In this document: in pieces, positions 24,420-47,266 of the stretch
How the letters are laid out: each line of letters opens with the position of its first letter
How positions within the stretch are numbered: the stretch's first letter is position 1
Assembly: GCA_015063495.1 (NCBI GenBank)
Contig: SVUB01000003.1
Location: 1-47,266 of the forward strand
Direction of reading: 5' to 3'
DNA length: 47,266 nt
From: Oscillospiraceae bacterium
GTDB taxonomy: Bacteria > Bacillota > Clostridia > Oscillospirales > CAG-272
Notes under the pieces: model-generated
What the model saw: only the letters and a program-made list of their open reading frames with translations
What the model was told of the DNA's origin: nothing
Databases searched by the model: none
Program-made: the position numbers and the translations under genes

Positions 24420-24434
24420 GTCTTTTTCCTTTCT

Positions 24435-25294: not shown

Positions 25295-25295
25295 A

Positions 25296-26945: not shown

Positions 26946-26946
26946 A

Positions 26947-29651: not shown

Positions 29652-29659
29652 AGCACACC

Positions 29660-30013: not shown

Positions 30014-30047
30014 TTTTATTCTCCTTTATGTATTTATTAAACTTTAT

Positions 30048-30500
30048 TTAAGCCTTCTGCTTATCGATATTTATAACTCTGTTAAGCGACGCTATAAGCG
30101 CAAGCGCCTTTGCGAGAGCATCGGAGAGTGCCTCGCACTTCTCTCCCTGCTCGTGTGTACGGTGCGTCTGCCAAGCAAGAAGCTCCTTGAGATCCTTAAG
30201 CTCAGCTTCCGCCTTATCTGCTCTCGTCTGCGTATCAAATAGAGCAACTTCAAGCCGTTTTGCATATTCCGCCGTGTCAGCTTCGATCTCCTCGCTTATA
30301 GTGGGGCTCTTTTTCGACGCCTCGGGAGCAGGCTTTATCTCCGCCTCTTCCCTTTCGGCCCTCAGCTCTCTTATAAGAGAGTTAAGCTCCTTCATATTAC
30401 AGTCGAGAAGGTCACAGAGTATCTCCTTCTGCTCCTTCACGTTTTTCGTCTGCTCAAGCATAGGCAGGACTTCGTCTCTTTCAATTGTCTTAAAGTGCAT
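30048..30500 (-). CDS. Hypothetical coiled-coil protein
   Basis: Coupled ORF; QKEILCDLLDC motif. Confidence 0.6.
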   Translation of the reverse strand: MHFKTIERDEVLPMLEQTKNVKEQKEILCDLLDCNMKELNSLIRELRAEREEAEIKPAPEASKKSPTISEEIEADTAEYAKRLEVALFDTQTRADKAEAELKDLKELLAWQTHRTHEQGEKCEALSDALAKALALIASLNRVINIDKQKA

Positions 30501-30512
30501 AGTAATTCTCCT

Positions 30513-32999: not shown

Positions 33000-33003
33000 G
33001 CCC

Positions 33004-33207
33004 CTACCCTCTCACGGCATCCGTCATCACGGTAAAGAAATTCCATTCGAGGTACTCCCCGTACCCACGGTAGCTCTCGATATTGTGCGTAATGATATCA
33101 AAAAAGGATATCAGCATCCAGAGCCCGAGCAGTGTGCATATTATAGTCACCGCCCATACTACAAGATCTATCACTCTTTCTTTATCTGTCTTTCTTCCTT
33201 GTCTCAT
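33004..33207 (-). CDS. Small membrane protein
   Basis: One hydrophobic segment; GGAGG RBS. Confidence 0.6.
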   Translation of the reverse strand: MRQGRKTDKERVIDLVVWAVTIICTLLGLWMLISFFDIITHNIESYRGYGEYLEWNFFTVMTDAVRG

Positions 33208-33334
33208 ATCCGCCTCTCCTGTTCTCTTTAATAGTCCTTACCTGCCGCAGCTCAAAAAAGCGGCCGTATATCTTTCTTATTATCCTTTCCGCTTCCGCAT
33301 ATGGGAGCGGAGAAGGTTTCTTTGTTGGTGTCAT
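33182..33334 (-). CDS. Small hypothetical protein
   Basis: MTPTKKPSPLPY start at 33334, right after the upstream stop. Confidence 0.45.
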   Translation of the reverse strand: MTPTKKPSPLPYAEAERIIRKIYGRFFELRQVRTIKENRRGGYETRKKDR

Positions 33335-33335
33335 A

Positions 33336-33458
33336 TTAACCTTCCTTTGACGTCGATGTGTCACTATATGTATCTGCGTGATTTCTTTCCACTGTGCAGT
33401 CGCACTTCTCTCCAAAGTCGAGATTAGCGCCGCAGAGAGGGCATGAAATATATTGCAT
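33336..33458 (-). CDS. Small zinc-finger protein (40 aa; not in the ORF track)
   Basis: MQYISCPLCGANLDFGEKCDCTVERNHADTYSDTSTSKEG*, GGAGGTG RBS. Confidence 0.7.
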   Translation of the reverse strand: MQYISCPLCGANLDFGEKCDCTVERNHADTYSDTSTSKEG

Positions 33459-33459
33459 A

Positions 33460-33696
33460 TTACACCTCCGACGATATCAGCGTTCCGGAGTTTACTGTTA
33501 TCGGGCTCTGCTTCATAAGTGGATGATTTTCCGCTTTCATTTTTGCGATCTTCTCGTCAAGGAACTCTTTTCCACCGGGCTCTTCAAGAATTTTTCTGAT
33601 AGACTTATACCCCGATCGACCAATGCAAAACCGTTTACTCTCAGAAAAGCTATCTATCTCTTCTTTCGGTATTTTGAATTTTGGTGTGTTGCTCAT
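33460..33696 (-). CDS. Hypothetical early protein
   Basis: Start MSNTPKFK at 33696 after AAGGAG. Confidence 0.55.
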   Translation of the reverse strand: MSNTPKFKIPKEEIDSFSESKRFCIGRSGYKSIRKILEEPGGKEFLDEKIAKMKAENHPLMKQSPITVNSGTLISSEV

Positions 33697-33722
33697 AAAT
33701 CTCTCCTTTTTGAACTTCAATA

Positions 33723-33941
33723 TCATTGAACTTTTGAGACAAAAAAATAATCGCTCAGTTGACACTCCGGAATATCGAGAACTTCTATAGCAGCTTGCAT
33801 TTCTGATTGTTTGAACGGACGGATATTATTAAGTTTTAATGATAACGAACGTTCTGATAGCTTTATTTTTTTTGCAAAATTAGCTTGTGTCCCGCACTTT
33901 TCCTTGATTTTTCCTGATAGTTTACTGTAATCGTATAACAT
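33723..33941 (-). CDS. Cro-like HTH regulator (DUF739 family)
   Basis: YDYSKLSGKIKEKCGTQANFAKKIKLSERSLSLKLNN...YFF; divergent from the repressor. Confidence 0.88.
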   Translation of the reverse strand: MLYDYSKLSGKIKEKCGTQANFAKKIKLSERSLSLKLNNIRPFKQSEMQAAIEVLDIPECQLSDYFFVSKVQ

Positions 33942-33986
33942 ATTTTCCTCCTAATACAAAAATTCAATTTCGTTGAACTTAACTGC

Positions 33987-34015
33987 ATTATAACATCATA
34001 TTTTTAATTTGTCAA
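33987..34015 (-). promoter_or_regulatory. Lytic (leftward) sigma-A promoter
   Basis: TTGACA (34015-34010), 17 bp spacer, TATAAT (33992-33987) with extended TG. Confidence 0.85.
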
Positions 34016-34055
34016 TAGCAAAAATCAAAAAAATTGAACTTTTTTTCAAAAAGTA

Positions 34056-34084
34056 TTGAATTTAAGTTCAAAACGGTGTATAAT
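34056..34084 (+). promoter_or_regulatory. Lysogenic (rightward) promoter for the repressor operon
   Basis: TTGAAT (34056), 17 bp spacer, TATAAT (34079). Confidence 0.7.
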
Positions 34085-34117
34085 TATGTCACATTGATAT
34101 TGAAAGAGGCTGTTTTT

Positions 34118-34807
34118 ATGAAAGAACACACAACAGGAGAACGACTTCGACAAATAATGTCTGAGCGAGGATTGAAACAAGTCGATATACTTAATATGTG
34201 CAAACCTTATTGTGAAAAACACAAAGTGTACATTAGAAAAAATGATTTAAGTCAATATGTGGCAGATAAAGTATCTCCCGGACAAGATAAATTAACCATT
34301 TTAAGTCTTGCGCTTGGCGTTAGCGAGGTTTGGCTTATGGGTTATAATGTCGAAATGTCGAGAGAAAACAATAATAAAAAACTTATATATGATAAAACTC
34401 CTTCTAATATTTACCCTATTGATCTTAAGCGATTCCCTCTCCTTGGCGAAATAGCTTGTGGCGAACCTATCTTTGCAGAAGAAGATCACGAAAGCTATAT
34501 TATGGCATCTGCTGATATTAAGGCTGATTTTTGTCTTATAGCAAAAGGTGACAGTATGGTTGGTGCAAGAATAAACGATGGGGACGTTGTTTTTATAAGA
34601 CAACAGCCTATGGTAGATAATGGAGAGATCGCCGCCGTTATAATAGATGGAGAAGCAACTCTCAAACGTTGGTATTATTATCCCGAAAAACAGAAATTGC
34701 TCCTCGCCCCGGCAAATGAAAAATACGAGCCTTTTATTTACATTGGCGAAGAACTGAACGAGATCCGCTGCCTCGGTAAGGCAGTATGTTTTATGAGTAA
34801 TCTTTAA
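34118..34807 (+). CDS. CI-like repressor (HTH + S24 peptidase)
   Basis: N-terminal HTH (ALGVSEVWLMG), PLLGEIACGEP cleavage-site region, KGDSM, ATLKR; start MKEHTT at 34118. Confidence 0.92.
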   Translation: MKEHTTGERLRQIMSERGLKQVDILNMCKPYCEKHKVYIRKNDLSQYVADKVSPGQDKLTILSLALGVSEVWLMGYNVEMSRENNNKKLIYDKTPSNIYPIDLKRFPLLGEIACGEPIFAEEDHESYIMASADIKADFCLIAKGDSMVGARINDGDVVFIRQQPMVDNGEIAAVIIDGEATLKRWYYYPEKQKLLLAPANEKYEPFIYIGEELNEIRCLGKAVCFMSNL

Positions 34808-34817
34808 GGAGTTCTTT

Positions 34818-35240
34818 ATGAAAAAAATATCAGTTTTATTAGTGCTTTTTCTTTTACTTTCAATATTCGTCGGATGCCGGGAAAATAAAGTTACAATAAG
34901 TGAAGAGTTTTATAAGTACGCAACAGACACCATCAATATAATCAACAATTACCTAAACTACGTAAAAGGTTATTCATATCAGTACATGGACAATCGATTG
35001 ATGGACTTGGATTCGCCTGAATTACCACCATTTGATGGAATTGATGAGGAAATACGAAGCAAAGAGGTTGAGATATGGTCTAAAGTTCTAAAGATTCACG
35101 TTTATGTGTCGTTTCATGAGGAGAATCCTAATACACGAGACCATCTTAAAGAAGCGATAGATGAATTGCAGAAAATTCTCGATGGTGTCGTTGTAGGCGA
35201 GGTCATTATTGACACTGCTCTACAAGACACTTTGCAGTAA
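34818..35240 (+). CDS. Lipoprotein (possible superinfection exclusion)
   Basis: Signal peptide II MKKISVLLVLFLLLSIFVG-C; within the repressor operon. Confidence 0.65.
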   Translation: MKKISVLLVLFLLLSIFVGCRENKVTISEEFYKYATDTINIINNYLNYVKGYSYQYMDNRLMDLDSPELPPFDGIDEEIRSKEVEIWSKVLKIHVYVSFHEENPNTRDHLKEAIDELQKILDGVVVGEVIIDTALQDTLQ

Positions 35241-35288
35241 TATAATGTTAAAAATTAAGCGTTGGTATAGTTAAGAAAGAGGAGCAAT

Positions 35289-36368
35289 ATGAGTTTTGCG
35301 AAATGGGCCGATTATCACGATTTACCGGCACAGCAAAAAAGAATTGAAAATGCTAAAAGTGCCAAAAATACACCTTTAGATATTTCCACAGAAGGTAAAT
35401 CCGGAAAATTCAGTGGCAGTCATGGTACATATTATGCTGCGCTTGAATATTGTGACTGCTTTGATTTTAAGAGTAGGAAACTGCCTTGTAAACATATGTA
35501 CAGGTTGGCTATGGAACTTGGGGAATTCGAGGGCAATGTTGAAAGCGATTTAAAACAGGTCAACCAACCATCCAAGAATTTAACAGCATCACCTTCGGCA
35601 AAAAACAAAGCTCTTTTGGATTTTGCGGAGATAATTGAGCCGAGACCTGATATGATTCCTTGGATTTGTAAATTGTTATATAGGGGAAGTGCAAATAATA
35701 CTTGCGTGTGCCTTGATATACAAGATGTTTCGTTTTTGATCGATAATGGACTTGTATCCGTAAGTAAGGATTACGTTCAAGTACTTGAAATATTTAGCCA
35801 AAGAAATCTCTTACTCCAAGTGCAAGAAGCTCGTATATACATACCTTCAGAATTAAAACTGAAACGAGATCAATATCAATGGTGCATGGATAATGCAGAA
35901 ACGGTCTGCAATATTCTCTATCCTAATGCGGGGATCCTTACACCAAACGGACTACTAACAGTCTCTCCGCATAAAATACAAGCTTTTGCATCACGCAGAG
36001 ATGCTCAGTTGAATTCTGAATTTCTCTATTGTGATAGTGAAGATGAAACTGTTAACAAGTTATTAAAAGAATATGCTCCACACAATAACAAAACAACTAA
36101 TGATGGTATATTTGAAAACAAGAATCTTGACGGCTTGAGCATTGCAATTACCGGTATTCTCCCCTCTTTGTCAAGGGAAGAAGCTGCTGAAATGATCAAA
36201 GAAGCCGGTGGAAGGTTGTCAGGCTCCGTTTCGAGCAAAACAGCATATTTGGTAGCAGGAGAAGAAGCCGGATCAAAGCTTCAAAAAGCACAGGAGCTGC
36301 GAATCCCGATTATAGGCGAAGCCGAATTACTTGACATTATCAAAAATAATAAAAAGAGCAAATCATAA
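35289..36368 (+). CDS. SWIM zinc finger + C-terminal BRCT domain protein
   Basis: CDC.DF..RKLPCKHMY SWIM motif; ITGILPSLSREEAAEMIKEAGG...SVSSKTAYLVAGEEAGSKLQKA LigA-type BRCT. Confidence 0.85.
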   Translation: MSFAKWADYHDLPAQQKRIENAKSAKNTPLDISTEGKSGKFSGSHGTYYAALEYCDCFDFKSRKLPCKHMYRLAMELGEFEGNVESDLKQVNQPSKNLTASPSAKNKALLDFAEIIEPRPDMIPWICKLLYRGSANNTCVCLDIQDVSFLIDNGLVSVSKDYVQVLEIFSQRNLLLQVQEARIYIPSELKLKRDQYQWCMDNAETVCNILYPNAGILTPNGLLTVSPHKIQAFASRRDAQLNSEFLYCDSEDETVNKLLKEYAPHNNKTTNDGIFENKNLDGLSIAITGILPSLSREEAAEMIKEAGGRLSGSVSSKTAYLVAGEEAGSKLQKAQELRIPIIGEAELLDIIKNNKKSKS

Positions 36369-36410
36369 AAACATATTCCCAAACGATTACGAATTTGAAA
36401 AGGAGAACGA

Positions 36411-38018
36411 ATGAGATCACAACAGAATATCATACAAGCTGCGATTCCTGCTGTGATCTACGCTCGTTTTTCGTCACACAAACAGCATGAAGAGTCGATA
36501 GAACAGCAGGTTGCAGAGTGCGAAGCATACGCTGCCACTAATGGCTTCAAAATAGTAGGTATATATTCAGATAGCGCAAAGACGGGACGAACTGACCGAC
36601 GTGCAGACTTTCAGAGACTTCAGCGTGATTCGAAAAAGGGAAAATTTCAAGCAATAATTGCATATAAATCAAATCGAATAGCTCGAAATATGCTTAACGC
36701 TATGGTATTTGAGAACGATATGGAGCGCATCGGCATCAGCGTGCTTTACGCAAAAGAGGAGTTTGGCAATAACGCAGCTGGGCGCTTTGCTCTCCGCACC
36801 ATGATGAACGTCAATCAGTTCTTCTCGGAAAATATGGGAGAAGATATAAAGCGAAGTCAAGCAGATAATGCTCAAAACTGCCTTGCAAACGGTCCGGCGT
36901 CTTATGGCTTCAAAACCGATGACGAAGGGCACTTCATAATAAATGAAGATGAAGCATCCATTATCCGTGAAATTGCAAAAAGGCTTGACAACGGAGAAGT
37001 GTTGTCGGAGATTGAGCGTGACTTTGATAAGAGAGGAATAAAAACACGCCGTGGCAATAGATGGACAGTAAGCTCACTTTACCGAGTTATACAAAACAAG
37101 CGGATCGCAGGATATTACATCTTCAATGATATCGAAATTAAAGGTGGTGTACCTGCCATTATAGACGAGGAGGTCTGGATCAGATTGCAACAAGGATTTA
37201 AGAAAAAGTTCCCCCGGGGAAAGAAGACAAAGGACGATGAATATCTACTCACCGGTAAACTTTTTTGCGGTGAGTGCGGAGATCATATGATAGGTATGTC
37301 GGGAACAGGTAAGAGCGGAACTGTCCACTATTATTATGTTTGCAGTAATAAACGAGGTGGGGGATCTTGCAAAAAGAAAAACGTTCGCCGTGAATATATC
37401 GAAAGCGAGATCGCACGCGGAATAAAGGAGTACGTTCTGCAACCCGATGTAATAAGTTGGATGGCTGATTCGGTAATCGAATATCAAAACTCCTGCAAAG
37501 ATAATCCCGATTATAAGAGGTTGAAGGACGAACTAACCGACGTTAAAAAATCTCTTAAAAATCTTGTCAGCGCTATAGAGCAAGGAATATTCAGCCCGGC
37601 GACCAAAACACGTCTCGATGAGCTCGAAACGAGGCAATGCGAAATAAAAGCTCAATTAAAAAATTACGAAAACGAAGCTTTCAGCGTTACACGAGAGCAG
37701 ATAATCGCATATTTTGAAAGTTTCAAAGACGGTGATATAGATGATAAGGATTTTCAAAAAACACTTTTTGATTCATTCGTAACAAAGATATACCTCTTCG
37801 ATGATCGCGTAAAGATAATTTTCGATTTTACCGACTCAAAGTACCGCGAGGTAGACTTTTCCCTCTCTGATGCCTCAATTTCCGAGGATGTCGGGGTTCG
37901 TCTATCCTCTCATTTGGGTCACCAAAAAACAAAAGAGACTGCAAAAGCAGTCTCTTTTTGTTTTTTGACGCCCTGTTTAGGGTCGACACAGCGCAGGGTT
38001 GAAAACAATATCGTTTAG
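36411..38018 (+). CDS. Large serine recombinase (prophage integrase)
   Basis: YARFSS catalytic Ser, recombinase domain, LTGKLFCGECG...YYVC...C zinc ribbon, coiled coil. Confidence 0.95.
   Translation: MRSQQNIIQAAIPAVIYARFSSHKQHEESIEQQVAECEAYAATNGFKIVGIYSDSAKTGRTDRRADFQRLQRDSKKGKFQAIIAYKSNRIARNMLNAMVFENDMERIGISVLYAKEEFGNNAAGRFALRTMMNVNQFFSENMGEDIKRSQADNAQNCLANGPASYGFKTDDEGHFIINEDEASIIREIAKRLDNGEVLSEIERDFDKRGIKTRRGNRWTVSSLYRVIQNKRIAGYYIFNDIEIKGGVPAIIDEEVWIRLQQGFKKKFPRGKKTKDDEYLLTGKLFCGECGDHMIGMSGTGKSGTVHYYYVCSNKRGGGSCKKKNVRREYIESEIARGIKEYVLQPDVISWMADSVIEYQNSCKDNPDYKRLKDELTDVKKSLKNLVSAIEQGIFSPATKTRLDELETRQCEIKAQLKNYENEAFSVTREQIIAYFESFKDGDIDDKDFQKTLFDSFVTKIYLFDDRVKIIFDFTDSKYREVDFSLSDASISEDVGVRLSSHLGHQKTKETAKAVSFCFLTPCLGSTQRRVENNIV
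37896..37924 (+). other. Putative attR: P-type half-site plus tRNA-Glu 3'-end core GGGTCACCA
   Basis: GTTCG-N15-GGGTCACCA followed directly by an intrinsic terminator; the core matches the 3' end of Bacillota tRNA-Glu (...CCCGTACGGGTCACCA). Confidence 0.65.
37922..37967 (+). terminator. Bidirectional intrinsic terminator
   Basis: AAAAGAGACTGC-AAAA-GCAGTCTCTTTT with A and T tails. Confidence 0.85.
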
Positions 38019-38082
38019 TTATAAACATTCCCTGCGCATGGGGACGTAACATTGGTAGTGCGCCGTGAAACGCGCACACCAA

Positions 38083-38100
38083 ATTCCCGTACGGGTCACC
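38083..38100 (+). other. tRNA-Glu 3' fragment (second att-like scar)
   Basis: ATTCCCGTACGGGTCACC, i.e. T-loop/T-stem/acceptor 3' part; upstream sequence does not form a tRNA. Confidence 0.75.
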
Positions 38101-38153
38101 TCTACCGCTCGGGGAACTTTATCGTTGTCTTCGGTTGCTATCATTGGTGTTTT

Positions 38154-38336
38154 TTAATCACAAACCCATTTGTTTCCGTTCTCATCAGTATAAGAATGTT
38201 CTGCATAAAATTCGTCATACGATTTTTGCGCTTCAAGCGGCGCCTCGGGGGTTAACTTATATCCTTTTTCACCATCGCTTGGATCATAGTAATACCATTT
38301 GGGATTTGTCATAAAATAAGGCTTGTTTTGATACAT
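38154..38336 (-). CDS. Small hypothetical protein (moron; immunity-like)
   Basis: KPYFMTNPKWYYYD...YKLTPEAP...SYDEFY; low GC; AAGGAAG RBS. Confidence 0.65.
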   Translation of the reverse strand: MYQNKPYFMTNPKWYYYDPSDGEKGYKLTPEAPLEAQKSYDEFYAEHSYTDENGNKWVCD

Positions 38337-38351
38337 TAAAATCTCTTCCTT

Positions 38352-38612
38352 TTAAATCGTATTAAAATCAACACAGCTCTCACCTTTTTCATTGCATATT
38401 TTTGCTTTCCTTAAACACCCCTGAAAAGAAGTCCGCCTTTTGGCATACATAACGTGTGTTTTACACCATTCGTAATCGCATGGAAGTTCATATCCTGCAA
38501 GCTCCTTGCTTTTTATATCCAAAACAAGCTTTATAGGCGTACCGCAATCTTCGACAAAATCATTACAAACAATTTTATTGTCATTTCTTGATATGTACCG
38601 AAGTTTTATCAT
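38352..38612 (-). CDS. Small hypothetical protein, paralog of 38686..38931 with divergent C-terminus
   Basis: Shared MI.L..I..NDN.I....F...D....E...Y.....YE..K.....A pattern. Confidence 0.55.
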   Translation of the reverse strand: MIKLRYISRNDNKIVCNDFVEDCGTPIKLVLDIKSKELAGYELPCDYEWCKTHVMYAKRRTSFQGCLRKAKICNEKGESCVDFNTI

Positions 38613-38685
38613 CGCACTTTTCTCATTTGTTAAATGCTCGATTCAGGAAGCCTTGCAAAATCGATTTCACCTTTTCTCTTCAATA

Positions 38686-38931
38686 TCAGTACCAAATCAC
38701 TTTTCTTTCAGCAGGAAGAGGATCAAGATGTGCAATTCTTAATAGATCGTTTTGAGCATGGTATAGAATGAATTTGTAATTTTCGTAACCATGTGCAACA
38801 GTATAACTTATTACTTCAGATGTTGCTACATCAACCTTTATATGTCCATTGATCTCTTCATTTTCAATGTCGGGAAAATAATCTGCTTCAATGATATTAT
38901 CGTTTTTAGTTATGTTTTTTAATATTATCAT
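38686..38931 (-). CDS. Small hypothetical protein (moron; immunity-like)
   Basis: 81 aa ending LPAERKVIWY; own promoter upstream. Confidence 0.7.
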   Translation of the reverse strand: MIILKNITKNDNIIEADYFPDIENEEINGHIKVDVATSEVISYTVAHGYENYKFILYHAQNDLLRIAHLDPLPAERKVIWY

Positions 38932-38979
38932 AATATCCCATTACTCCCTTGTTATAATGAATTTTTTCTATTGTTTTTG

Positions 38980-39008
38980 ATTATAGCACTTTCTCCATTA
39001 TTTTGCAA
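38980..39008 (-). promoter_or_regulatory. Sigma-A promoter for the three small genes
   Basis: TTGCAA (39008-39003), 17 bp spacer, TATAAT (38985-38980) with TG extension. Confidence 0.7.
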
Positions 39009-39037
39009 ACCTTTTTAATATAAAGTTGTCAAAACAT

Positions 39038-39619
39038 TCATTTCGATAAATCTTGTTTAACGAACTCCGCCATGTTGTGAACGAGATCGGCAAAATAGGG
39101 GTCTATATCCTCACGCTTAAGCCAGTATGAGGGAGTGTTGATGATTCCCTTCTTTGCAAGGACTTCGATGTCCTCTGCATACTGATTTTTTGCGGTATAA
39201 GTGCCCGTCTTGTTCGGTATCCCGAGAATGTCCTCGGGGTTTATCTTTTTAGAGCCGTTACGCACCTCAAAATGAAGATGCGCTCCAAAAGAATACCCCG
39301 TATTACCCATAACACCGAGCTTGTCCCCGGCTCTTACGGTCTGACCTTCGGTAACAGCACGGCTCGCAAGGTGACAGTAATAGTAATAGAGCCCGTCACT
39401 GCCGTGAACGCAGACGTAATTGCCCCACTGCCAAGTGGTATCGCTCTTGTCGGTGACTATGCGACTTCTGATGACCTTGCCGGGAACGGCAGCTACTACG
39501 TCATAAGAGCCGACGCCGACGAGGTCGTAGCCTCCGTGAAACTGCTTTGCGCCGTTCAGAACTCTGCTACCGTAAGCAGAAGTCACACGAACCTTATCAC
39601 AATTAAACGGTATTATCAC
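39038..39619 (-). CDS. M23 family peptidase endolysin
   Basis: HGGYD, YCHL, GNTGYSFGAHLHFEVR; short C-terminal LAKKGIINTPSYW domain; no signal peptide. Confidence 0.9.
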   Translation of the reverse strand: MIIPFNCDKVRVTSAYGSRVLNGAKQFHGGYDLVGVGSYDVVAAVPGKVIRSRIVTDKSDTTWQWGNYVCVHGSDGLYYYYCHLASRAVTEGQTVRAGDKLGVMGNTGYSFGAHLHFEVRNGSKKINPEDILGIPNKTGTYTAKNQYAEDIEVLAKKGIINTPSYWLKREDIDPYFADLVHNMAEFVKQDLSK

Positions 39620-39978
39620 TTGACCTCACCGCCCTCTATGTACCCGCTGACGTTTGCATTCTCCGCCCACTTCTTTTTGGCAAGTGCAAGACCGTCATCA
39701 ACCCACTTACCAAGACGCTCTGCAGATATAAACGTTTTGAGCACTCCCGGCAGTGCATTATATACCTTCTTAATAACGTAAGCCTGCTTCAGCTCACCCG
39801 TTCCCGAGCCGAACTGCTTTTCCGCCTCTGTCACAAGGCTGTAAAGTATCTTATAGACGATATTCTTCTGCCCTCTCACGTATAGAACGGCAAGTCCTAT
39901 GATAAAGCACAGAATGAGCAGAATGCTGTCCCAATGGGACGCAAGAAAATTAAGTATTGACATTTTATATACCTCCAT
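39616..39978 (-). CDS. Holin (LL-H-like)
   Basis: N-terminal TM helix; LVTEAEKQFGSGTGELK..YV. Confidence 0.8.
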   Translation of the reverse strand: MEVYKMSILNFLASHWDSILLILCFIIGLAVLYVRGQKNIVYKILYSLVTEAEKQFGSGTGELKQAYVIKKVYNALPGVLKTFISAERLGKWVDDGLALAKKKWAENANVSGYIEGGEVK

Positions 39979-39991
39979 TTTATTATTTTAG

Positions 39992-40333
39992 TCAAGTCTG
40001 GCCGTGTGCCTGTTTATTTAGGTGCTTTTCGAGCATACCATGAGCCTTAGTCACCTCTCCGTTGCACCCCTGCTGCTTTAAGCCATCAAGAGCGGCAAGC
40101 ATTGCGTAGCTGAGGACACAAAGCTCGTCCTTGACTACCTGCATATCCGCATTCTCCTTGTCCTTAAGCTCCTTCGTATCGGATATATGAAGTATTCGGA
40201 GAGTTTCGATGTCGGTCGTCTGCTTTTCCTGCTTCTGAAACCACTTTATGATGCGATATGCGACCGCCCATATAGCTCCAAGTGCACCGAGCAGAGCGGC
40301 AAACTTTATTATTACGTCAATATCGATCTGCAT
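39992..40333 (-). CDS. Lysis-module membrane protein (holin-associated)
   Basis: N-terminal TM helix; LAALDGLKQQGCNGEVTKA...HLNKQAH. Confidence 0.65.
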   Translation of the reverse strand: MQIDIDVIIKFAALLGALGAIWAVAYRIIKWFQKQEKQTTDIETLRILHISDTKELKDKENADMQVVKDELCVLSYAMLAALDGLKQQGCNGEVTKAHGMLEKHLNKQAHGQT

Positions 40334-40337
40334 TTTT

Positions 40338-40568
40338 TCATATTCCCTCCGCTTCTATCTCTGCCTTCACCGCTTCCTTACAAGCCTCGGCATATGCGTT
40401 GTACGCTTCAAACTCCTCGGGCTTACTGTCTCTTTGGCGGAGTATAGCAAGCTCGTCAGAGACCGAATAACGCTCTCTTATCTTCTTTTCTATCTCTCTG
40501 CCGTAGAAGGCGTTAAAAGCCTTCGGGCGAAGCTCTTTATTTTTCTTTGCAAGCTTTATAAATTTCAT
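40338..40568 (-). CDS. Small phage protein following the tail fibre (possible chaperone)
   Basis: IRERYSVSDELAILRQRDSKPEEFEAYNAYAEACK. Confidence 0.65.
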   Translation of the reverse strand: MKFIKLAKKNKELRPKAFNAFYGREIEKKIRERYSVSDELAILRQRDSKPEEFEAYNAYAEACKEAVKAEIEAEGI

Positions 40569-42217
40569 ACTGTTCCCTCCTCAAGCATATAGGTGACGCT
40601 GCTGTGGACTGCTCTGCCGTCCTCATTTTCAAAGACTATCTTTCCGCTCGGTGCGACCTCGATGAGATTATCTATATCCCCGAGCTTATCCGAGATGTCT
40701 TCCTCCACGGGATCTGCGAGGGCGTAAACGAGCATAACAGGATTTTCCGCAAGCCATGCTTCCCATTCCGTAACGGTGGGCTTGTCGGAAATGAAATAAA
40801 CCCTGTTAAGAGAATCATGGTCGCTGTAATAGCCGAGCTTTGCTTTAGTTCTTGCAAACACACCATCTTCATTTATAAAATGACTGCAAAAACTTGTCTG
40901 ATAACCTATAAGCTTCTCGGGCATTTTATGCTGATAACAATATATGCCTTCGGGATAACTTGAAACAGGGTACTTTTCCCAACTCTCACTACCTGTAAAT
41001 TCTACTATACCGACATTCTTCAAATATTTAAGGGCTTCAAAGTCCACAGTATTAGCATATTTATTGATTCCCATACCGTAACCATCAAGTTTTCTTACAG
41101 CTTCGGGCATCTCTATCGACGAGAGGATATTCCCCTCCGCATCCTTGCTTACGATAGCGGTGACGGGAGTATCTGCAAGCCCCTCAAAGTAAGGCTCGAA
41201 CGGAAGCGCTGTGCTACCTACGTTAAGCATAGGCTTTATCGTTATCGGAGTTTCTATAGCGACCCCGGTTAGTGCCGCTATCTTCAATTGTGTAAATGTG
41301 ACCGTCCCGGGTAGAGTGAACGTACATCCATCTCCGTTATCACTAAAGCTGTGGTCTCCTGTATTATCAGACAAATAAAGGGGCATAAGTCCGCTTCCCT
41401 TCGGCATTCCCGACAGAGTATAAGTACCCGCAGGGAGAGTAAGAGAGTGACACAGATTGGCAAACCCACCCACAGCCGTGCCTGTACCCACAGTTATAAC
41501 TCCACCATCAATCGTAAGGGGAAGTCCACCCACCATACTGCCACTCGCAACATCATACGGAAACGGTATAAGATTATTAGATCTATGCGTCATACCGCCG
41601 ACACTCTGAAGCTCCGCATAGGGGCATGCATTCGCAGGTACGGCTTTCTCGTATGCTACCGTCTCGTCCGTCTCGAAATATTCGGGCGCAACCTGGTGCT
41701 CAAGATTCTTTATGCGCTTATGGGCATTCTCAACACCGTACTTAAGCTCATCCGATACCGATTCATAGTCTGAAAGGATTGCTTCTGCGGTATCAGCACT
41801 CTTCTTTGCCTCCTCTGCCGCTTCCCCTGCCTTTTTGGCGACTCCGTATATCTGCGCTATGACAGATGGCGAGGGCTCCTTGCCCTTATCAAAGGGCTCT
41901 GCTCCCTCATTTATAACTCCGAGCATATTCCACTCTGTCGGCAGCTTTATTCCGTCCTCATCCGAGCCGAAAGCTCCTGCCCAAAGAACTTTTCCAGCGT
42001 TTTCGGGGGCAAGGACCTCAAAAGGGATTATGCAGTGGCCTTCGTTTGCAAGAACGCTCACCGACACGTCCCCCGCCTTGAAGACTGCCGTTTTTACAAG
42101 GCCCTCCCACTCCTCACTGAACAAAAAGTGAACCTTATAGACTTTACTTGCGCCCGTAACTATCGGTTCTCTTTCATTGACCTTTATAATAGATTTTTTA
42201 ACGTCAAGTTTAAACAT
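40565..42217 (-). CDS. BppU-like baseplate/receptor-binding protein
   Basis: N-terminal FLFSEEWEGLVKTAVF...CIIPFEVL BppU-like domain, helical linker, carbohydrate-binding-like LPAGTYTLS...PMLNVGSTALPFEPY, WLAENPVMLVYALA. Confidence 0.7.
   Translation of the reverse strand: MFKLDVKKSIIKVNEREPIVTGASKVYKVHFLFSEEWEGLVKTAVFKAGDVSVSVLANEGHCIIPFEVLAPENAGKVLWAGAFGSDEDGIKLPTEWNMLGVINEGAEPFDKGKEPSPSVIAQIYGVAKKAGEAAEEAKKSADTAEAILSDYESVSDELKYGVENAHKRIKNLEHQVAPEYFETDETVAYEKAVPANACPYAELQSVGGMTHRSNNLIPFPYDVASGSMVGGLPLTIDGGVITVGTGTAVGGFANLCHSLTLPAGTYTLSGMPKGSGLMPLYLSDNTGDHSFSDNGDGCTFTLPGTVTFTQLKIAALTGVAIETPITIKPMLNVGSTALPFEPYFEGLADTPVTAIVSKDAEGNILSSIEMPEAVRKLDGYGMGINKYANTVDFEALKYLKNVGIVEFTGSESWEKYPVSSYPEGIYCYQHKMPEKLIGYQTSFCSHFINEDGVFARTKAKLGYYSDHDSLNRVYFISDKPTVTEWEAWLAENPVMLVYALADPVEEDISDKLGDIDNLIEVAPSGKIVFENEDGRAVHSSVTYMLEEGTV
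41417..41708. repeat. Direct repeat copy 2 (pairs with 1..292)
   Basis: 283/292 identical by manual alignment; identity may extend further but copy 1 is cut by the window edge. Confidence 0.95.
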
Positions 42218-42358
42218 TATTGCTCCTTATTATTTGAGTTTTAGGCAAAGACATCGGGCACGGCATCACCCGTTTTCCTTTCCCCCGATAAGGAAATGAC
42301 CCGCTTTAATGCCTCTGTCTGCTCGCCCGAAAGCCGCCCCGTTCGGCTTTCCGAAACA
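42218..42358 (-). ncRNA. Candidate structured 5' leader
   Basis: GAAAGCCG/CGGCTTTC hairpin; nested TCGGGC/GCCCGA, GGCATTA/TGATGCC, TTTCCTT/AAGGAAA stems. Confidence 0.4.
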
Positions 42359-42387
42359 ATGATAACATATTGAAAAAAGCTTGTCAA
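42359..42387 (-). promoter_or_regulatory. Sigma-A promoter driving the orphan cassette
   Basis: TTGACA (42387-42382), 17 bp spacer, TATCAT (42364-42359) with TG extension. Confidence 0.75.
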
Positions 42388-42420
42388 ATCACCCCCCCTC
42401 CATTTTTGAAAATAGGACAC

Positions 42421-42454
42421 AAAAAAAGCCTTCGCACAATGTGCGAAGGCTTTT
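42421..42454 (-). terminator. Intrinsic terminator of the host ABC operon
   Basis: AAAAGCCTTCGCACA-n-TGTGCGAAGGCTTTT with a T-run on the - strand, right after the 42459 stop. Confidence 0.9.
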
Positions 42455-42458: not shown

Positions 42459-43988
42459 TTAATATTTACCTGTGCTTGTTATCGGCTCGCCTGACTGAAC
42501 TCTCTTTGCGTCTGCAATTATCTTTTCAGCCATCGACTGGAGTGTATAAAACTCTCCCTCGCCGTTAAGCTCGATATACGAACGGCGCTCGGAATATCTG
42601 AAGAATCTGTATTTTAGCTCTCTGCCACTCTCGGTGTGGATCGTGAGAACAAGCTGTGCCCGACTATCGTCCATACTGCGGTAGGTCTCCATCTCTTCTC
42701 TCATAAGTCCGCATTCGCCTTCGTAGCAAGCATAAAGCAGAGTTTTATAGAATTGACGGAAATTCGTGACATCGGGTTTGTTTCCCGTGCCTCTCTCGGT
42801 AACGACAAGCTCCTGTCCCTCTCCCTCAAGGTCAAAGGTGACGCTGAAGTCGCCCGATTCTACGCTTATATCGGTAACGAATCCTATCTTCATCTGGAAG
42901 AAGGGCGCCTCTACCCAATCGAAAAGTGACCAGGTCACAAAATCAAAGGTCTCCGAGCTACCCTTTACAATCTGCTGAAAAAGTGAAGATGCTATATAGT
43001 ACGTTCCGTCGGGGTTTCTGGGGCTTATAAGCAGAAAATTCTCATTTTCACCATGCTTATAATAGAGTGAATAGCAGTTATTCGTAAGATTGTACTTTGC
43101 AAGCGACTCGTTATTTACTCCAAGGTGCACCACCTCAAGCTTATCATCCTCCGTGCTTGCCTCAAAGAGCTTATACATCGCACTTGACACCGCAGTTGCG
43201 GACGGAGTAAGGTCCTTCGGATAGAGCATTCTGAATGTGGTGGTTATAAACTCGGTATTCTCTCTTTCCTCAGCCTCGATATAGTCGACGTGAACTATTG
43301 TGTCCTCACCCTTTGCGAGAACGTAATCGTGAACAAGAAAATAGTCGTTCTGAGTCATCGGGGTGATTATCATAGGCTTTATGAGGGTCTCAACGGGCGA
43401 GAGGACGGTCTCCTCTATCGTCTTATCCACAACGTATACAACGTCGGGTCTTCCCTCATAGAGGAAATAGTATCCGCTTCCCGTAACTATCTTATCACCT
43501 ACTACTATACTGTATCTTCTGCCGTCCTTTGTAACCATTTCGGCGGTAGCAGGTCTCTTTACCGTGCCGTCCGCAAGGGTTACGGGCACAAGACCGTATT
43601 CGGAGAGCTCATTCGGGTCATCGAGCTTATACATAGCAGACGCATAGCCTATGCTCGTCATAAGAGCAGACATCGACTCCTCGTCAAAGGCTATTCCCTC
43701 GAAGCCCTCTATCTGATCAATACCCTTAGAATCCTTATATACGTGGTATCTGCCGTGGGCGTTATTTACGGTTACGGACTGTATATTTTTACTTTCGATA
43801 TATTCATAGACAAGTATCTTGTCTATACCCATAGCAACGTGCTCGCCCTCGTCTGTCTCAACAGGCTCTGTCACAGCGGTCGTTTCCTCGGCCTCGGTAA
43901 TAGGCTTTACAACGGCAAAATAACCGACAGTCAGAATGACGATAAGCACAGCTAATACTGCTATGATAACAGTTTGCTTTTTTAACAT
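42459..43988 (-). CDS. DUF4340 domain membrane-anchored protein
   Basis: N-terminal TM helix; LSEYGL...GDKIVTGSGYY...VYVV; follows the GldG-like gene. Confidence 0.75.
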   Translation of the reverse strand: MLKKQTVIIAVLAVLIVILTVGYFAVVKPITEAEETTAVTEPVETDEGEHVAMGIDKILVYEYIESKNIQSVTVNNAHGRYHVYKDSKGIDQIEGFEGIAFDEESMSALMTSIGYASAMYKLDDPNELSEYGLVPVTLADGTVKRPATAEMVTKDGRRYSIVVGDKIVTGSGYYFLYEGRPDVVYVVDKTIEETVLSPVETLIKPMIITPMTQNDYFLVHDYVLAKGEDTIVHVDYIEAEERENTEFITTTFRMLYPKDLTPSATAVSSAMYKLFEASTEDDKLEVVHLGVNNESLAKYNLTNNCYSLYYKHGENENFLLISPRNPDGTYYIASSLFQQIVKGSSETFDFVTWSLFDWVEAPFFQMKIGFVTDISVESGDFSVTFDLEGEGQELVVTERGTGNKPDVTNFRQFYKTLLYACYEGECGLMREEMETYRSMDDSRAQLVLTIHTESGRELKYRFFRYSERRSYIELNGEGEFYTLQSMAEKIIADAKRVQSGEPITSTGKY

Positions 43989-44023
43989 TTAGATATGCTT
44001 CCTTTTCGATTATAATCTTTTAC

Positions 44024-45565
44024 TTATCTTTCAGATTTTCTCTTAAGCATAACTACCATTCCCGTAATGAACACGATAGCCGCGGGGATAATGGTGAGCA
44101 TAAGAGTATAGGAGGTAGCATCGGCTGTGGTGAGGCTTTCTATATCAACGTTTGCAAAGGGCTTCTTTGCAAGATTAATATAGACTATCTCCTTCTGCAT
44201 GATCCTCATCATAGAGTAGAGAGAATCACGGTTTCCGTACACGTTTGACTGAAGCATAGCCTCGGAAGCAAAATCAATAGAGCCGCACGCCATAACGTAG
44301 GAATACTCAACGGTTGTGCTGTTCTCAAGCTGTCTGCCCTCGGTAGTGATTGTAAGAAGCGGATAGCGATCGACCTCGCCCGCCTCGCCTACGACCTTAC
44401 CGTTCGCTTCGATAACGGCATCCTCGCTTGTAATGAAAATATCGTTTCTCTGGCGGTTGTAGCCGTTTGAATTGTAATATCCCGTGGAATCGTAATTATC
44501 CGTGGGCATGATAGGCATAGCGTCTCGGAAAATGACCTTCGGAGCAGTTCCTGCGTTTGTAAGGTCGTTATTTACCTTCTTGCCGAGCGTGTTCTCGTCG
44601 GTAACGTACTCGGAAACGACTGTATATCCGTCAAAGGTAAGCGACTGTGAGGAATCCTTAACAACGCAGTTATACGTATTATCTACCTCGTCCGTATGTC
44701 TTCCGAACTGAATTCCCCACTCGTAAAGGTATTCCTCAAGGTTGGGAAGCACGGGAGTCTTCGGAGAAACGAATATCATAAAGGAATTGACGCCGTCAAG
44801 GAATTTATCAAGCTTTTCTATCTCGCTGACCTCGGAAACACCGTCAAAGGTCGACATAAAGTCACTTGTGGGGTTATAGCTTATCATAAGACGGCAGTCC
44901 TCGGGTATCTCGTCCTTTGAAAGGTCTATCGGAACGCACTCGTAGCCTGCATCGGTAACAAGGCTGATAAGCTCAGCGTCACGGTACGCCTCACCGTGGT
45001 TTGAAACGAGAGCGCAGACGGGTGCCTCGGCTCTCGTCACGGCAACTATCGTCGCAACGAAGCGGGATTCTGCGTTATATGCCCAAGGGTCGGTCACGTT
45101 CTGATTTGCAAAGGTATAGAAGGACTTAAGGTCTATCTTTCTGAACTCTGTTCCGCTCTCGATTATTACGTCGGTCGTCTTTATCTCGGTCGTTGCGGTG
45201 ATGAGATATTTATTGACAGCAGAGCGGTTCTGAATGATGTTCACGGTATCGACCGTAATGTTATCAAAGCGTTCTTCTATCTGAAGTGCGGTATTATAGA
45301 CAAGTCGTGTGGTGCTGTTTGCCTCAAGATTATCGGGATCATCGCAGAAAAGGATCCTGACGGGGGCATCGATATCCTCGAGAAGCTCTGCGCACTCGTC
45401 AGAGAGGGTATAGAGCGTTTCGGGAGTCATATCGATGTACCAGAGGAACTTTGATGCGAGTGCCGAAAAAACAACGTTGATAACTATAACTGCGGCAATG
45501 AAAAGAGCGGTAAAGGCAACGGACACCGTGCCGTAGCGAAGCTTTTTATTAGTATGGAAATTCAT
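44024..45565 (-). CDS. GldG-family ABC transporter auxiliary component
   Basis: IDMTPETLYTLSDE, NHGE, IPEDC, N- and C-terminal TM helices. Confidence 0.85.
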   Translation of the reverse strand: MNFHTNKKLRYGTVSVAFTALFIAAVIVINVVFSALASKFLWYIDMTPETLYTLSDECAELLEDIDAPVRILFCDDPDNLEANSTTRLVYNTALQIEERFDNITVDTVNIIQNRSAVNKYLITATTEIKTTDVIIESGTEFRKIDLKSFYTFANQNVTDPWAYNAESRFVATIVAVTRAEAPVCALVSNHGEAYRDAELISLVTDAGYECVPIDLSKDEIPEDCRLMISYNPTSDFMSTFDGVSEVSEIEKLDKFLDGVNSFMIFVSPKTPVLPNLEEYLYEWGIQFGRHTDEVDNTYNCVVKDSSQSLTFDGYTVVSEYVTDENTLGKKVNNDLTNAGTAPKVIFRDAMPIMPTDNYDSTGYYNSNGYNRQRNDIFITSEDAVIEANGKVVGEAGEVDRYPLLTITTEGRQLENSTTVEYSYVMACGSIDFASEAMLQSNVYGNRDSLYSMMRIMQKEIVYINLAKKPFANVDIESLTTADATSYTLMLTIIPAAIVFITGMVVMLKRKSER

Positions 45566-45583
45566 TTTTGCACCTCCCTCTCA

Positions 45584-46330
45584 TCAGCCCCAACGGCGCT
45601 TTTCATAAACGCGAACGGTGAGGAAGATAAACACTGCTGTGAGTGAAAGATAATAAAGCAGTGCAGAAAAATCGAACATTCCGTAGCCAAAGGGAGAATA
45701 ACGGCTAAGAACGCTTACCCATGATATTATCGCACGGATAGCGTAGTTGCTGATAAAGTTATTTACAAAGCCGAGAACTATCATAACAAGCAGCGCTGCG
45801 ACAGAAAGAACGGCTGCTGCAAGCTGATTCTCGGTAAGAGTGGAGATAAGCATACCGACAGCGATAAATGCCGCGCCGATAAGAATAACGCCGATAAGCG
45901 AACCGATTATCTGCGCTCCCGATGGGCCTATATGTATCACCTTTGAAGCCGCCTCTGCTCTCTCTCTCATTGCAACCGCATAAAGCGGTATAAAATTGAT
46001 GCAGGAGAGAAGAACGGACGAAACGAAGAGTGTCAGCGCCGCAATATATTTGCCGAGCACCATTCCCGTTATCGAAACGGGAGCGGTAAGGAGCATCTGC
46101 TCAGTGCGGAGCTTCTTTTCCTCTGCGAAAAGCTTCATCGTAAGAAGCGGAACGAGCACTACGAATGCAAATATCATCATAGAGAAATAGCTAGTTGTGT
46201 TATATGACTTACTTATAAGCGTCGAATAGCAGAACAGAAGCGCAGAAAGCGCAAGGAATATACCTATGTAAACGTATCCGACGGGTGTTATGAAATAGGA
46301 TCTGAGTTCCTTTCGATATATGGCAAGCAT
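45584..46330 (-). CDS. ABC-2 permease (GldF-like)
   Basis: AIYRKELRSYFITPVGY, PLLTMKLFAEEKK, LLTAPV, ISTLTENQ. Confidence 0.9.
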   Translation of the reverse strand: MLAIYRKELRSYFITPVGYVYIGIFLALSALLFCYSTLISKSYNTTSYFSMMIFAFVVLVPLLTMKLFAEEKKLRTEQMLLTAPVSITGMVLGKYIAALTLFVSSVLLSCINFIPLYAVAMRERAEAASKVIHIGPSGAQIIGSLIGVILIGAAFIAVGMLISTLTENQLAAAVLSVAALLVMIVLGFVNNFISNYAIRAIISWVSVLSRYSPFGYGMFDFSALLYYLSLTAVFIFLTVRVYEKRRWG

Positions 46331-46362
46331 ATTTTCAGGTTTTCCTTTCTTTTTATCCCAAA

Positions 46363-47266
46363 TTATTTGCGGTCAACGATATCCGCATCGCTCTTGTGAT
46401 TCTCACGTGTGGTTTTCATGATATCACTTGCTATCTGCTTCTCGAGTCCCGCCTTACCGGGTCTGTAGCCCTTTTCCTTCTCAGGACGGAGCGAGCGCAC
46501 AGAGTTACTCTTATCAACGATATTGATAAAGATGTCCTCAAGGCTCATGCCAAGAGCTTCCATTCCGATAAGAGGCCAGTTCTTTTCTGCAAGGGTATAG
46601 AAAAGGCTCTTGCGTATATCAATGCCAACGGCACTCTCTATCATATACGTATAGGCATCGCCGTCTCTCTCTGCGAGAGCTTCTGCGTATACGATCCCGC
46701 TCTTTTCCTTAAGCATCGCAAGTACCTCACGCTGAGGACCGCATACCTTTATGCTGAAACGGCGGTTATTCTCCATCGCACGGCTGATGTTCTCGGTCTT
46801 TTCATCGGCAACTATCTTGCCCTTATTTATAATAACGATTCTGTCGCATACCGCCTGCACCTCTTGGAGAATATGAGTGCTGAGAATAACGGTATGGTCA
46901 CGGCCGAGATTTCTGATAAGGTTTCTTATCTCTATTATCTGCTTTGGGTCAAGACCGATGGTCGGCTCGTCGAAGATAATAACGGGAGGATTTCCTACAA
47001 GCGCCTGAGCGATGCCTACTCTCTGCTTATAGCCCTTTGAAAGATTCTTTATAAGTCTCTTTCTCATATCGCTTATCTTGGTGACCTCGCAGATCTCTGC
47101 AAGATGCTTTTCTCTGTCGTACTTGCAGTCCTTAAGCTCATAAGCAAAATTAAGATACTCCTCGACCGTCATATCCATATAAAGCGGAGGCTGCTCGGGA
47201 AGATATCCAATCTTTTTCTTTGCTTCAAGCGGATTTTCGAGAATATCCACGCCTGCTATGCGGATG
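46363..47266 (-). CDS. ABC transporter ATP-binding protein (GldA-like), 5' end outside the window
   Basis: GYLPEQPPLY, LSKGYKQRVGIAQA, IIFDEPT, STHIL; Walker A not in the window. Confidence 0.92.
   Translation of the reverse strand, partial: IRIAGVDILENPLEAKKKIGYLPEQPPLYMDMTVEEYLNFAYELKDCKYDREKHLAEICEVTKISDMRKRLIKNLSKGYKQRVGIAQALVGNPPVIIFDEPTIGLDPKQIIEIRNLIRNLGRDHTVILSTHILQEVQAVCDRIVIINKGKIVADEKTENISRAMENNRRFSIKVCGPQREVLAMLKEKSGIVYAEALAERDGDAYTYMIESAVGIDIRKSLFYTLAEKNWPLIGMEALGMSLEDIFINIVDKSNSVRSLRPEKEKGYRPGKAGLEKQIASDIMKTTRENHKSDADIVDRK

Follow-up and report, generated by a model that had tools for sequence, protein, structure and literature searches.

The cryptic-prophage remnants of Escherichia coli include fibre genes. 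Tailocins and PBSX-type defective phages are domesticated sets of phage late genes with a lysis cassette, an S24-type repressor switch and variable fibres that set the target. PblA and PblB of the Streptococcus mitis phage SM1 are tail or fibre proteins that are released via the phage holin and lysin and then bind to the cell surface. Recombination of cryptic E. coli K-12 prophage remnants with incoming temperate phages is described by De Paepe et al. (2014; PMC3945230), and the lysis module of DLP12 in E. coli K-12 in a further paper (PMC7918800). Examples of type 10 secretion, in which proteins are released by way of a holin and a peptidoglycan hydrolase, are Serratia ChiWXYZ, a Salmonella chitinase, the Yersinia Tc toxin and Clostridioides difficile TcdE. 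Here we describe a small fibre and lysis gene cassette that lies beside a prophage in an Oscillospiraceae bacterium (contig SVUB01000003.1 of assembly GCA_015063495.1; the window, meaning the whole stretch of 47,266 nucleotides that was analysed). Probably, bases 38101-42420 of the window are a retained chromosomal cassette of phage origin, a repressor-less member of its family, that exchanges receptor modules with phages.

The cassette resembles the E. coli K-12 remnants in being a chromosomal leftover of fibre and/or lysis genes that trades DNA with functional phages by homologous recombination. Unlike those remnants, the cassette family has a dedicated repressor of the self-cleaving type with its own operators and has diverged in step with host genes from species to species, and its predicted anchor belongs to a tail type (siphovirus, BppU-like) other than that of its partner phage (a P2-like myovirus). 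In contrast to tailocins and PBSX, the cassettes are without sheath, tube, baseplate and tape-measure genes and consist of fibre and lysis genes only. With type 10 secretion they share a phage-derived holin or holin-like protein and a wall hydrolase beside a large cargo gene that has no visible export route; here, however, the cargo would be a phage fibre under phage-type repressor control, and some members have no lysis genes. PblA and PblB are encoded in a complete prophage, whereas the cassette fibre gene stands alone in the chromosome. The N-terminal domain (N-domain) of the fibre shares the fold of BppU (TP901-1 ORF48), with matches to 4v96, 3uh8 and 6v8i, but unlike BppU the cassette has neither a Dit/Tal partner (PF05709 in 0 of 17 genomes) nor a Pfam sequence match. 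Prophage leftovers are usually seen as junk awaiting deletion; a minimal one, made up of repressor, fibre and at times lysis genes, is here kept under purifying selection through speciation, and a receptor-binding module is repeatedly common to the cassette and to resident phages of another tail type.

The window is the entire contig C23 of a metagenome-assembled genome (MAG) of 95 contigs (1.35 Mb, 73% complete). It was compared with 16 other genomes of the genus (17 with the host genome), all of them fragmented MAGs. A complete-looking, temperate, P2-like myovirus fills bases 1 to ~37915. Beyond it, within 39038-42217, are five minus-strand genes, all open, as originally predicted (Table 1), and the prediction also held in that open reading frames (ORFs), Pfam and PHROG revealed no head, tube, sheath or replication genes between 38083 and 42454.

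The two fibre genes of the window share a module. The body of the cassette fibre gene recurs at the left end of the window, within the 5' part of the prophage's own tail-fibre gene, and the two modules are direct repeats. We reproduced the reported 283/292 match of bases 1-292 (9 mismatches) and found that the repeat extends to base 303 at 95.7% identity, with 13 mismatches over the 303 positions and a longest exact run of 80 nucleotides (nt). The window starts inside the repeat, and 303 nt is its visible part; a longer identical stretch to the left is the probable cause of the assembly break at this point. Upstream of the motif NLEHQV, protein alignment finds an Ala/Glu/Lys-rich stretch alone, in keeping with the earlier description of unrelated N-termini on a shared body.

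This arrangement recurs across the genus. Cassette and prophage fibre tracts are near-identical (96-99%) in five of the five genomes tested that hold both: 303 nt at 95.7% in this genome, 231 nt at 97% in G016, 178 nt at 96% in G013, 505 nt at 96% in G007 and 147 nt at 99% in G003. The prophage contig terminates at the shared tract in each of the five, and shared fibre and lysis tracts explain the assembly breaks in the fibre and lysis genes of these genomes. The test omits G014, which has a cassette and Baseplate_J and whose contig holds only the N-terminal part of its fibre. A second fibre copy was present in none of three prophage-free genomes (none in G011 and G001; an unrelated interspersed repeat in G002), a test that left out G006 and G012. 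The fibre C-termini are mosaic even among species whose N-domains are 84-86% identical. In G003 the prophage is not adjacent to the cassette; it lies ~22 kb away and carries a different recombinase (29% identical). Receptor-module exchange between the retained cassette and resident phages is thus directly visible, and among the models that the original prediction had put forward, that of a resident element exchanging receptor modules with phages is the best supported.

The cassette type, its conservation and the architecture around it are observed well beyond the window. N-domain matches occur in 14 of the 16 other genomes (E ≤ 0.001), at 43-53% identity in nine and more weakly elsewhere; with a further comparison included, the range in relatives is 43-54%. 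A repressor at least 68% identical is present in 9 of the 16, one per genome, and always adjoins the N-domain fibre gene in divergent orientation. When a genome collection was scanned with a 5-row alignment, two weak loci came up beside those of the genus that were known by then, and no others. The entire element stands between ordinary host genes in three genomes. In G002, the repressor, a 629-residue fibre, three small genes, a holin-like gene and an M23 gene lie between a HAD hydrolase gene and those for tRNA-Met, a ClpP-like protein and Fur. In G011, aconitase and isocitrate dehydrogenase genes precede the repressor and fibre parts of 172 and 257 residues; next come genes for 111 and 89 residues, the holin-like gene and M23, followed by two genes, a copy of the tRNA-Glu core sequence described below, and tRNA-Glu(CTC). 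In G012, the repressor and a 626-residue fibre lie between an ABC transporter and tRNA-Glu(CTC), with no lysis genes. Four more species share a Na/Pi cotransporter, repressor and fibre arrangement. Sheath, tube, baseplate and tape-measure genes were found beside neither the G002 nor the G011 cassette.

The intergenic regions of the relatives align over a TTGACAA-17-TATCAT or -TATGAT promoter and up to four TTCAG-N4-CTGAA palindromes. The leader that follows (for example, L022 4690-4710) combines a Shine-Dalgarno sequence with a mini-ORF that consists of a start and a stop codon (ATG TAG or ATG TAA), and then has a hairpin with a T run. Its last operator is just ahead of the fibre ribosome-binding site. 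Such a layout hints at a further level of regulation. Outside the cassette, the operator pattern is found only once in each of five genomes, which points to a dedicated rather than a global regulator. A Cys-Gly site and the motifs GDSM and TLKR are invariant in all nine aligned repressors (eight from cassettes and the prophage's own).

In the window, the promoter is kept, aligning with the cassette promoters of seven relatives, and the end of the host ABC operon stands where relatives have the repressor gene. The promoter (11 of 12 consensus matches) and the terminator insulating the cassette from the ABC operon (14-bp stem) were both found where they had been described. Directly past the -10 box is TTCGG-N4-CCGAA, by alignment a variant of the family operator and the sole intergenic copy in the genome, the other copies being inside genes; G003, the other repressor-less cassette, has the identical variant at the identical place. 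This genome shows no enrichment of the cassette operator, with 9 sites of the form GTTC-N8-GAAC vs ~20 expected. The prophage repressor is near-identical to the relatives' cassette repressors in its S24 half and different in its helix-turn-helix (HTH) half; we considered it as a controller of the cassette and judged this unlikely because of the different HTH half and its likely operators, TTCAA-N5-TTGAA. A second HTH-S24 regulator, 35% identical, is encoded elsewhere in the host genome (C85 844-1700) and kept in at least six genomes of the genus. A palindrome of its own, TTCTG-N4-CAGA, overlaps the promoter, an operon runs divergently from it, and it is possibly a damage regulator that belongs to the host itself.

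Selection on the cassette was estimated in four species with the common Na/Pi-cotransporter locus. The ratio of nonsynonymous to synonymous substitution rates (dN/dS) is 0.03-0.06 for the repressor (81-91% amino-acid identity), 0.09-0.14 for the fibre N-domain (67-86%) and 0.05-0.07 for the neighbouring host gene (83-92%). For the repressor and the host gene, dS is ~1 or more, which is saturating, and is about equal in the closest pairs. These figures argue for vertical descent of the repressor and fibre N-domain under constraint, not decay. They bear directly on the strongest competing explanation, a plain decaying remnant: the distal end of an old prophage at tRNA-Glu, unused, and intact only through youth or overwriting by phages. 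As decay would predict, the window has lost the repressor and has degenerate operators, and a diverged strain found in a public sequencing run from another study (run X4) has a 617-nt deletion beside M23, with lysis and fibre-body parts at 90-93% identity vs 98.4% for the flank, as if replaced from phages. Yet all five genes are intact here and in frame in X4 via paired indels, and the promoter, operators and leader are kept across seven relatives. The multi-copy lysis genes beside tRNA genes across the genus, and a repeat resembling a miniature inverted-repeat transposable element between the holin-like gene and M23 in G002, would also suit a remnant; the repressor and N-domain, however, have no second copy to refresh from and still show dN/dS of 0.03-0.14 at saturating dS. 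A remnant was among the models first proposed. With the cassette type kept in 9 of 16 genomes, and dS as in the host gene, we regard it as unlikely. The original prediction envisaged a search of prophage-free relatives: G011 has the cassette beside tRNA-Glu(CTC), and the relatives' dN/dS is in the range above.

The prophage/host junction places the cassette outside the phage. ARAGORN found no tRNA in the window. At the start of contig C37 of the same MAG is the 3' part of a further M23 gene (93 codons; 88-89% identical); 40 nt on is an intact, convergent tRNA-Glu(CTC), and host genes come after. The leftward continuation predicted from copy 1, a second lysis module followed by an intact tRNA-Glu, is accordingly present, both on C37. 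The ~2 kb expected between C23:1 and C37:1 is absent from the MAG, whose shortest contig is 2685 bp. The sequence GGGTCACCA occurs at 37916 and at the end of the intact tRNA on C37, and the core also follows the G007 integrase gene. There, the recombinase gene (64% identical) continues across GGGTCACCA into a terminator of the tRNA type, after which comes the end of a fibre operon. The layout of tRNA-Glu, ~165 nt and a core copy is found on contig C89 and in G011, where it lies beside the cassette with no prophage. From these comparisons we conclude that the recombinase probably integrated the phage at the tRNA-Glu(CTC) 3' end over a short core (37916-37925), and that the copy at 38083 is likely to be older and host-owned, with the cassette, from 38101 onward, outside the prophage. 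The original prediction was right to place the cassette outside, as the tRNA-Glu flank from 37916, the second M23 and tRNA on C37 and the G011 layout indicate, and wrong to place attR at 38083: the right junction is most probably 37916-37925, and 38083-38100 is a conserved duplicate also present in prophage-free G011.

Two further observations concern these sites. The serine-recombinase ORF spans the att core (37854-38018), its last ~34 codons coming from the host flank, and the G007 recombinase ORF likewise crosses the core (L041, G007:C165, 3373-3443); integration and excision should therefore swap the C-terminal tail of the enzyme. Several tRNA-Glu genes are followed, ~165 nt downstream, by a duplicate of their 3' end that is either perfect or decayed, for example at G000:C89 3708-3957 (L001 708-958) and L021 14700-15030. 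These duplicates look like scars of earlier integrations.

The same junction weighs on another of the models first proposed, in which a circular phage recombined with the resident cassette within the shared module, so that 38101-41416 would be phage DNA. The modules are direct repeats, the X4 lysis half is more diverged than its flank, and the gene order (N-domain, module, lysis, integrase ... tail, fibre N-terminus, module, gap, second M23, tRNA) fits such a crossover. However, the 170 nt between the integrase and 38083 are the natural tRNA-Glu flank, and an X4 contig runs from 37916 into the cassette side. The core copy, spacer and tRNA-Glu(CTC) stand beside the prophage-free cassette of G011, and the repeats are just 95.7% identical, with no exact run beyond 80 nt. 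The integrase is complete and at the junction, its ORF crossing the core in two species; a junction of the same make-up (integrase, GGGTCACCA and tRNA flank) occurs in G007, where this model would imply a phage that lacks lysis genes. We consider this explanation very unlikely.

An assembly artefact, either a chimera or a circularly permuted phage genome overlapping in the repeat and misjoined to a host contig, is scarcely credible: the contig does start exactly in the repeat, and the order 1..41416 would give a canonical circular temperate phage map, but exact contig pieces from public runs and the X4 contig 41574-43815 bridge the junctions, C37 provides a separate second lysis end with a tRNA, and there are 13 mismatches between the repeat copies over 303 positions. 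We had initially suspected a circularly permuted phage contig and abandoned this on account of the second M23 and tRNA on C37 and the bridging contigs. The pieces identical to the window bridge 37933-38246, 41378-41753 (run X3) and 42333-42666, in runs that may include the source sample. Mis-assembly at the junction, raised with the original prediction, is contradicted by these pieces, which cross 38083-38100, both repeat edges and the cassette/ABC junction. In X4, one contig spans 41574-43815 at 98.4%, including the N-domain, promoter and DUF4340 gene. The X4 fibre body is 93% identical and M23 ~90%, with in-gene indels in compensating pairs. An X4 contig that begins at 37916 continues into the cassette side, and 38447-39063 is skipped in an X4 contig. 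X4 covers the integrase, BRCT and repressor genes little or not at all, which we did not take as prophage absence. Joints with 21-nt sides (for example, 34867 to 40620) were disregarded as weak.

Our preferred reading, that of a cassette retained by the host and trading receptor modules with phages, can be put as a mechanism. The core of the family, kept across an uncultured genus of gut Clostridia, would be a fibre gene whose N-terminal anchor is siphovirus-type (BppU-like) and whose glycan-binding-like C-terminus can be swapped, with a sigma-70-type promoter to drive it. Most relatives would keep this promoter shut by means of an XRE-S24 repressor, divergently encoded and self-cleaving, that binds the TTCAG-N4-CTGAA operators. 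Many copies, including the one in the window, appear to run on into small fibre-associated and lysis genes (membrane protein, holin-like protein, M23). The P2-like myovirus would have come later, inserting between tRNA-Glu(CTC), now on C37, and the cassette, and the 303-bp module would be a homologous recombination (gene conversion) tract between the cassette fibre gene and the prophage fibre gene. Once the promoter is freed, in relatives by RecA-stimulated self-cleavage of the repressor, fibre-like and lysis proteins would be made and the fibre released by lysis. What the data show is the anatomy, the conservation, the selection, the co-divergence and the sharing of modules; induction, lysis, release, the direction of exchange and any benefit are what we infer. 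The release of a fibre-like cargo, a model already offered in the original prediction, is possible, and self-lysis would be a reasonable route. More tentatively, and with clear doubt, the genus may keep a DNA-damage-gated fibre gene whose receptor half stays near-identical to that of the resident P2-like prophage and whose anchor half suits none of the tails that the genome encodes, with induced free fibres acting as a blocker or decoy, or with the gene as a reservoir. If so, free fibres of the phage's receptor specificity could limit the adsorption of released phage to kin, or the cassette would be a standing reservoir of a host-tuned receptor module for incoming phages; either would be a novel type of host function derived from a phage, based on the fibre alone and particle-free. 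The family offers a system in gut Clostridia for asking how temperate phages gain host-matched receptor modules, and whether free phage fibres, accompanied by self-lysis or not, serve bacteria in social interactions or against phages.

Several findings weigh against this reading. The cassette here has no repressor, and none with a cassette-type HTH was found in the MAG (73% complete); the cell would have to tolerate a near-consensus promoter left unrepressed ahead of lysis genes. The missing repressor weakens the cargo-release model, as do relatives without lysis genes: the lysis half is outside the invariant core, G012 having the repressor and fibre only and G007 probably likewise. Lysis genes are multi-copy in the genus, so their low dN/dS (0.09-0.12) could reflect recent import from working phages. 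Between the two module copies of this genome dN/dS is 0.64, a value based on 13 differences. No docking partner for the N-terminal anchor is apparent: Sipho_tail (Dit, PF05709) was found in 0 of the 17 genomes of the genus, and Baseplate_J in just 6 of the 17. The linkages in G007, G003 and G013 depend on overlapping contig ends. Finally, the crossover point of the serine recombinase is placed by sequence comparison, the empty site not having been recovered.

Table 1. Coordinates of the cassette, the prophage genes discussed and the junction and regulatory elements in the window.
Feature	Position	Strand	Basis
Shared fibre-body module, copy 1	1..303	-	95.7% identity to 41417-41719
Prophage tail-fibre gene, 5' part (N-terminus MNYYDKLTEQP...)	1..594	-	Open frame truncated by contig end
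CI-like prophage repressor, HTH + Peptidase_S24	34034..34807	+	Pfam S24 E 1.2e-22
Large serine recombinase (prophage integrase)	36411..38018	+	Resolvase, Recombinase and Zn_ribbon_recom domains
Putative attR core GGGTCACCA(A), displaced 3' end of tRNA-Glu(CTC)	37916..37925	+	C89 tRNA-Glu flank homology starts here
Host flank 3' of tRNA-Glu: terminator 37931-37958 + ~125-nt spacer	37926..38082	+	84% identity to C89 flank
Older 18-nt duplicate of tRNA-Glu 3' end	38083..38100	+	Exact 17-nt copy on C23, C37, C89
Three small ORFs (60, 86, 81 residues), G+C 0.36	38154..38931	-	Open frames
Predicted M23 peptidase endolysin, 193 residues	39038..39619	-	Peptidase_M23 78.4 bits vs cut-off 28.7 (Pfam)
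Holin-like membrane protein, 120 residues	39616..39978	-	phrog_15303 E 5.6e-25
113-residue protein, one transmembrane stretch + coiled coil	39992..40333	-	phrog_1009 E 1.6e-5
76-residue protein after fibre gene	40338..40568	-	Open frame
Fibre-like protein, 550 residues	40565..42217	-	BppU-like N-domain (1-~130), coiled coil, two beta-sandwich domains
Shared fibre-body module, copy 2	41417..41719	-	Homologue of 1-303
Palindrome TTCGG-N4-CCGAA directly past -10 box	42342..42355	.	Variant of family TTCAG-N4-CTGAA operator (alignment)
Cassette promoter TTGACA-17-TATCAT with TG	42359..42387	-	11/12 consensus matches
Terminator of host DUF4340/ABC operon	42424..42454	-	14-bp stem, then T run
Host ABC-type operon (DUF4340, ABC_transp_aux, ABC-2 permease, ATPase)	42459..47250	-	Pfam matches

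The assignment of the fibre N-domain comes from its predicted fold. The AlphaFold2 model of residues 1-165 has a predicted local distance difference test score (pLDDT) of 85 and consists of a beta-sandwich N-domain followed by a long helix. The best Foldseek matches in the PDB are the ~294-residue chains of the TP901-1 baseplate 4v96 (E 1.2e-4, probability 1.0, template-modelling score 0.42), followed by the 80alpha baseplate 6v8i (E 1e-3) and 3uh8, the N-terminal domain of TP901-1 ORF48 (E 5e-3); we take ORF48 and the matched 4v96 chains to be BppU. The N-domain therefore appears BppU-like by fold alone. The 550-residue protein matches zero Pfam families at E ≤ 0.01, and the only PHROG match of the N-domain is phrog_19695 (E 8.4e-7), a family with no assigned function. 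A profile of the N-domain finds 8625 clusters among 1.8 billion representatives, and in 149 of the best 150 clusters the match begins no later than residue nine. The cultured Butyrivibrio virus Ceridwen encodes a member whose gene is preceded by those for the tape measure, a tail protein and an endopeptidase tail protein and followed by the lysis genes; we interpret the tail protein and endopeptidase tail protein as Dit and Tal. The fold and the Ceridwen context together point to a siphovirus-type anchor, unlike the adjacent P2-like tail. At the cassette the Dit/Tal context is missing, the host ABC operon lying upstream.

Residues 176-550 are modelled as two beta-sandwich domains (pLDDT 90), one of which resembles carbohydrate-binding modules at a middling Z of ~7 (VIA-align); Foldseek gave no convincing match to the C-terminal model. 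Viral-contig scans with the 550-residue protein and the prophage fibre fragment returned zero relatives, and a word-indexed protein search with residues 1-165 returned only the query itself.

The remaining gene names given in the original prediction differ in how well they held up. The M23 assignment stands on its Pfam score and on metal ligands readable in the translation, HxxxD (HGGYD) and HxH (HLH); the protein also has PHROG endolysin and metallo-endopeptidase matches and shares 70-81% identity with its counterparts in the G002 and G011 cassettes, and we predict it to be an endolysin. The 120-residue protein is a probable holin: it has a single N-terminal hydrophobic stretch, its gene adjoins the endolysin gene, and homologues precede M23 in G002, G011, G003, G007 and G013. 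Its holin match is weak (phrog_6918, E 3.8e-4), and phrog_15303 is a family with no assigned function. BppU-like holds for the fold only. The 113-residue protein, 85% identical to a G011 cassette protein, is likely to be a lysis accessory and presumably resembles XhlA. The 76-residue protein has no family match in Pfam, PHROG or NCBIfam and is possibly a fibre chaperone, going by its position. No cassette protein has a PADLOC defence-system match. The three small ORFs have zero matches in Pfam, PHROG, PADLOC and NCBIfam; those of 86 and 81 residues (38352-38931) start alike, with MIxLxxIxxNDNxI, and look like paralogues. A 59-residue ORF at 42241-42420 was not counted as a gene, being hit by single-base deletions in X4. 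Within or just past the cassettes of G002 and G013 are interspersed palindromic repeats: in G002, ~400 nt between the holin-like gene and M23 (L015, G002:C18 ~15057-15467), with at least 10 genome copies, and in G013, ~250 nt (L019, G013:C6 ~4835-5090), with at least 40 copies.

The prophage includes genes for capsid E, a lambda-type portal, a GpA terminase and SSB, and for a tail with sheath, tube, tape measure, gpV/W/J/I-type baseplate and fibre. The fibre gene comes after the baseplate J and Tail_P2_I genes (Pfam), an order that is the same in the G003, G013 and G007 prophages. Pfam recognised no Rad52-like recombinase in the prophage, and Rfam at the gathering threshold gave zero matches in the window. 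A lysogeny block on the plus strand encodes the HTH-S24 repressor, a 140-residue protein, a SWIM/BRCT protein and, at the prophage end, the large serine recombinase, which matches the phrog_95 integrase over residues 12-481 (E 8e-107). The SWIM/BRCT protein (35289-36368) matches the candidate defence family PDC-S48 (E 1.4e-9), and a homologue is found at the equivalent position of the G003 prophage.

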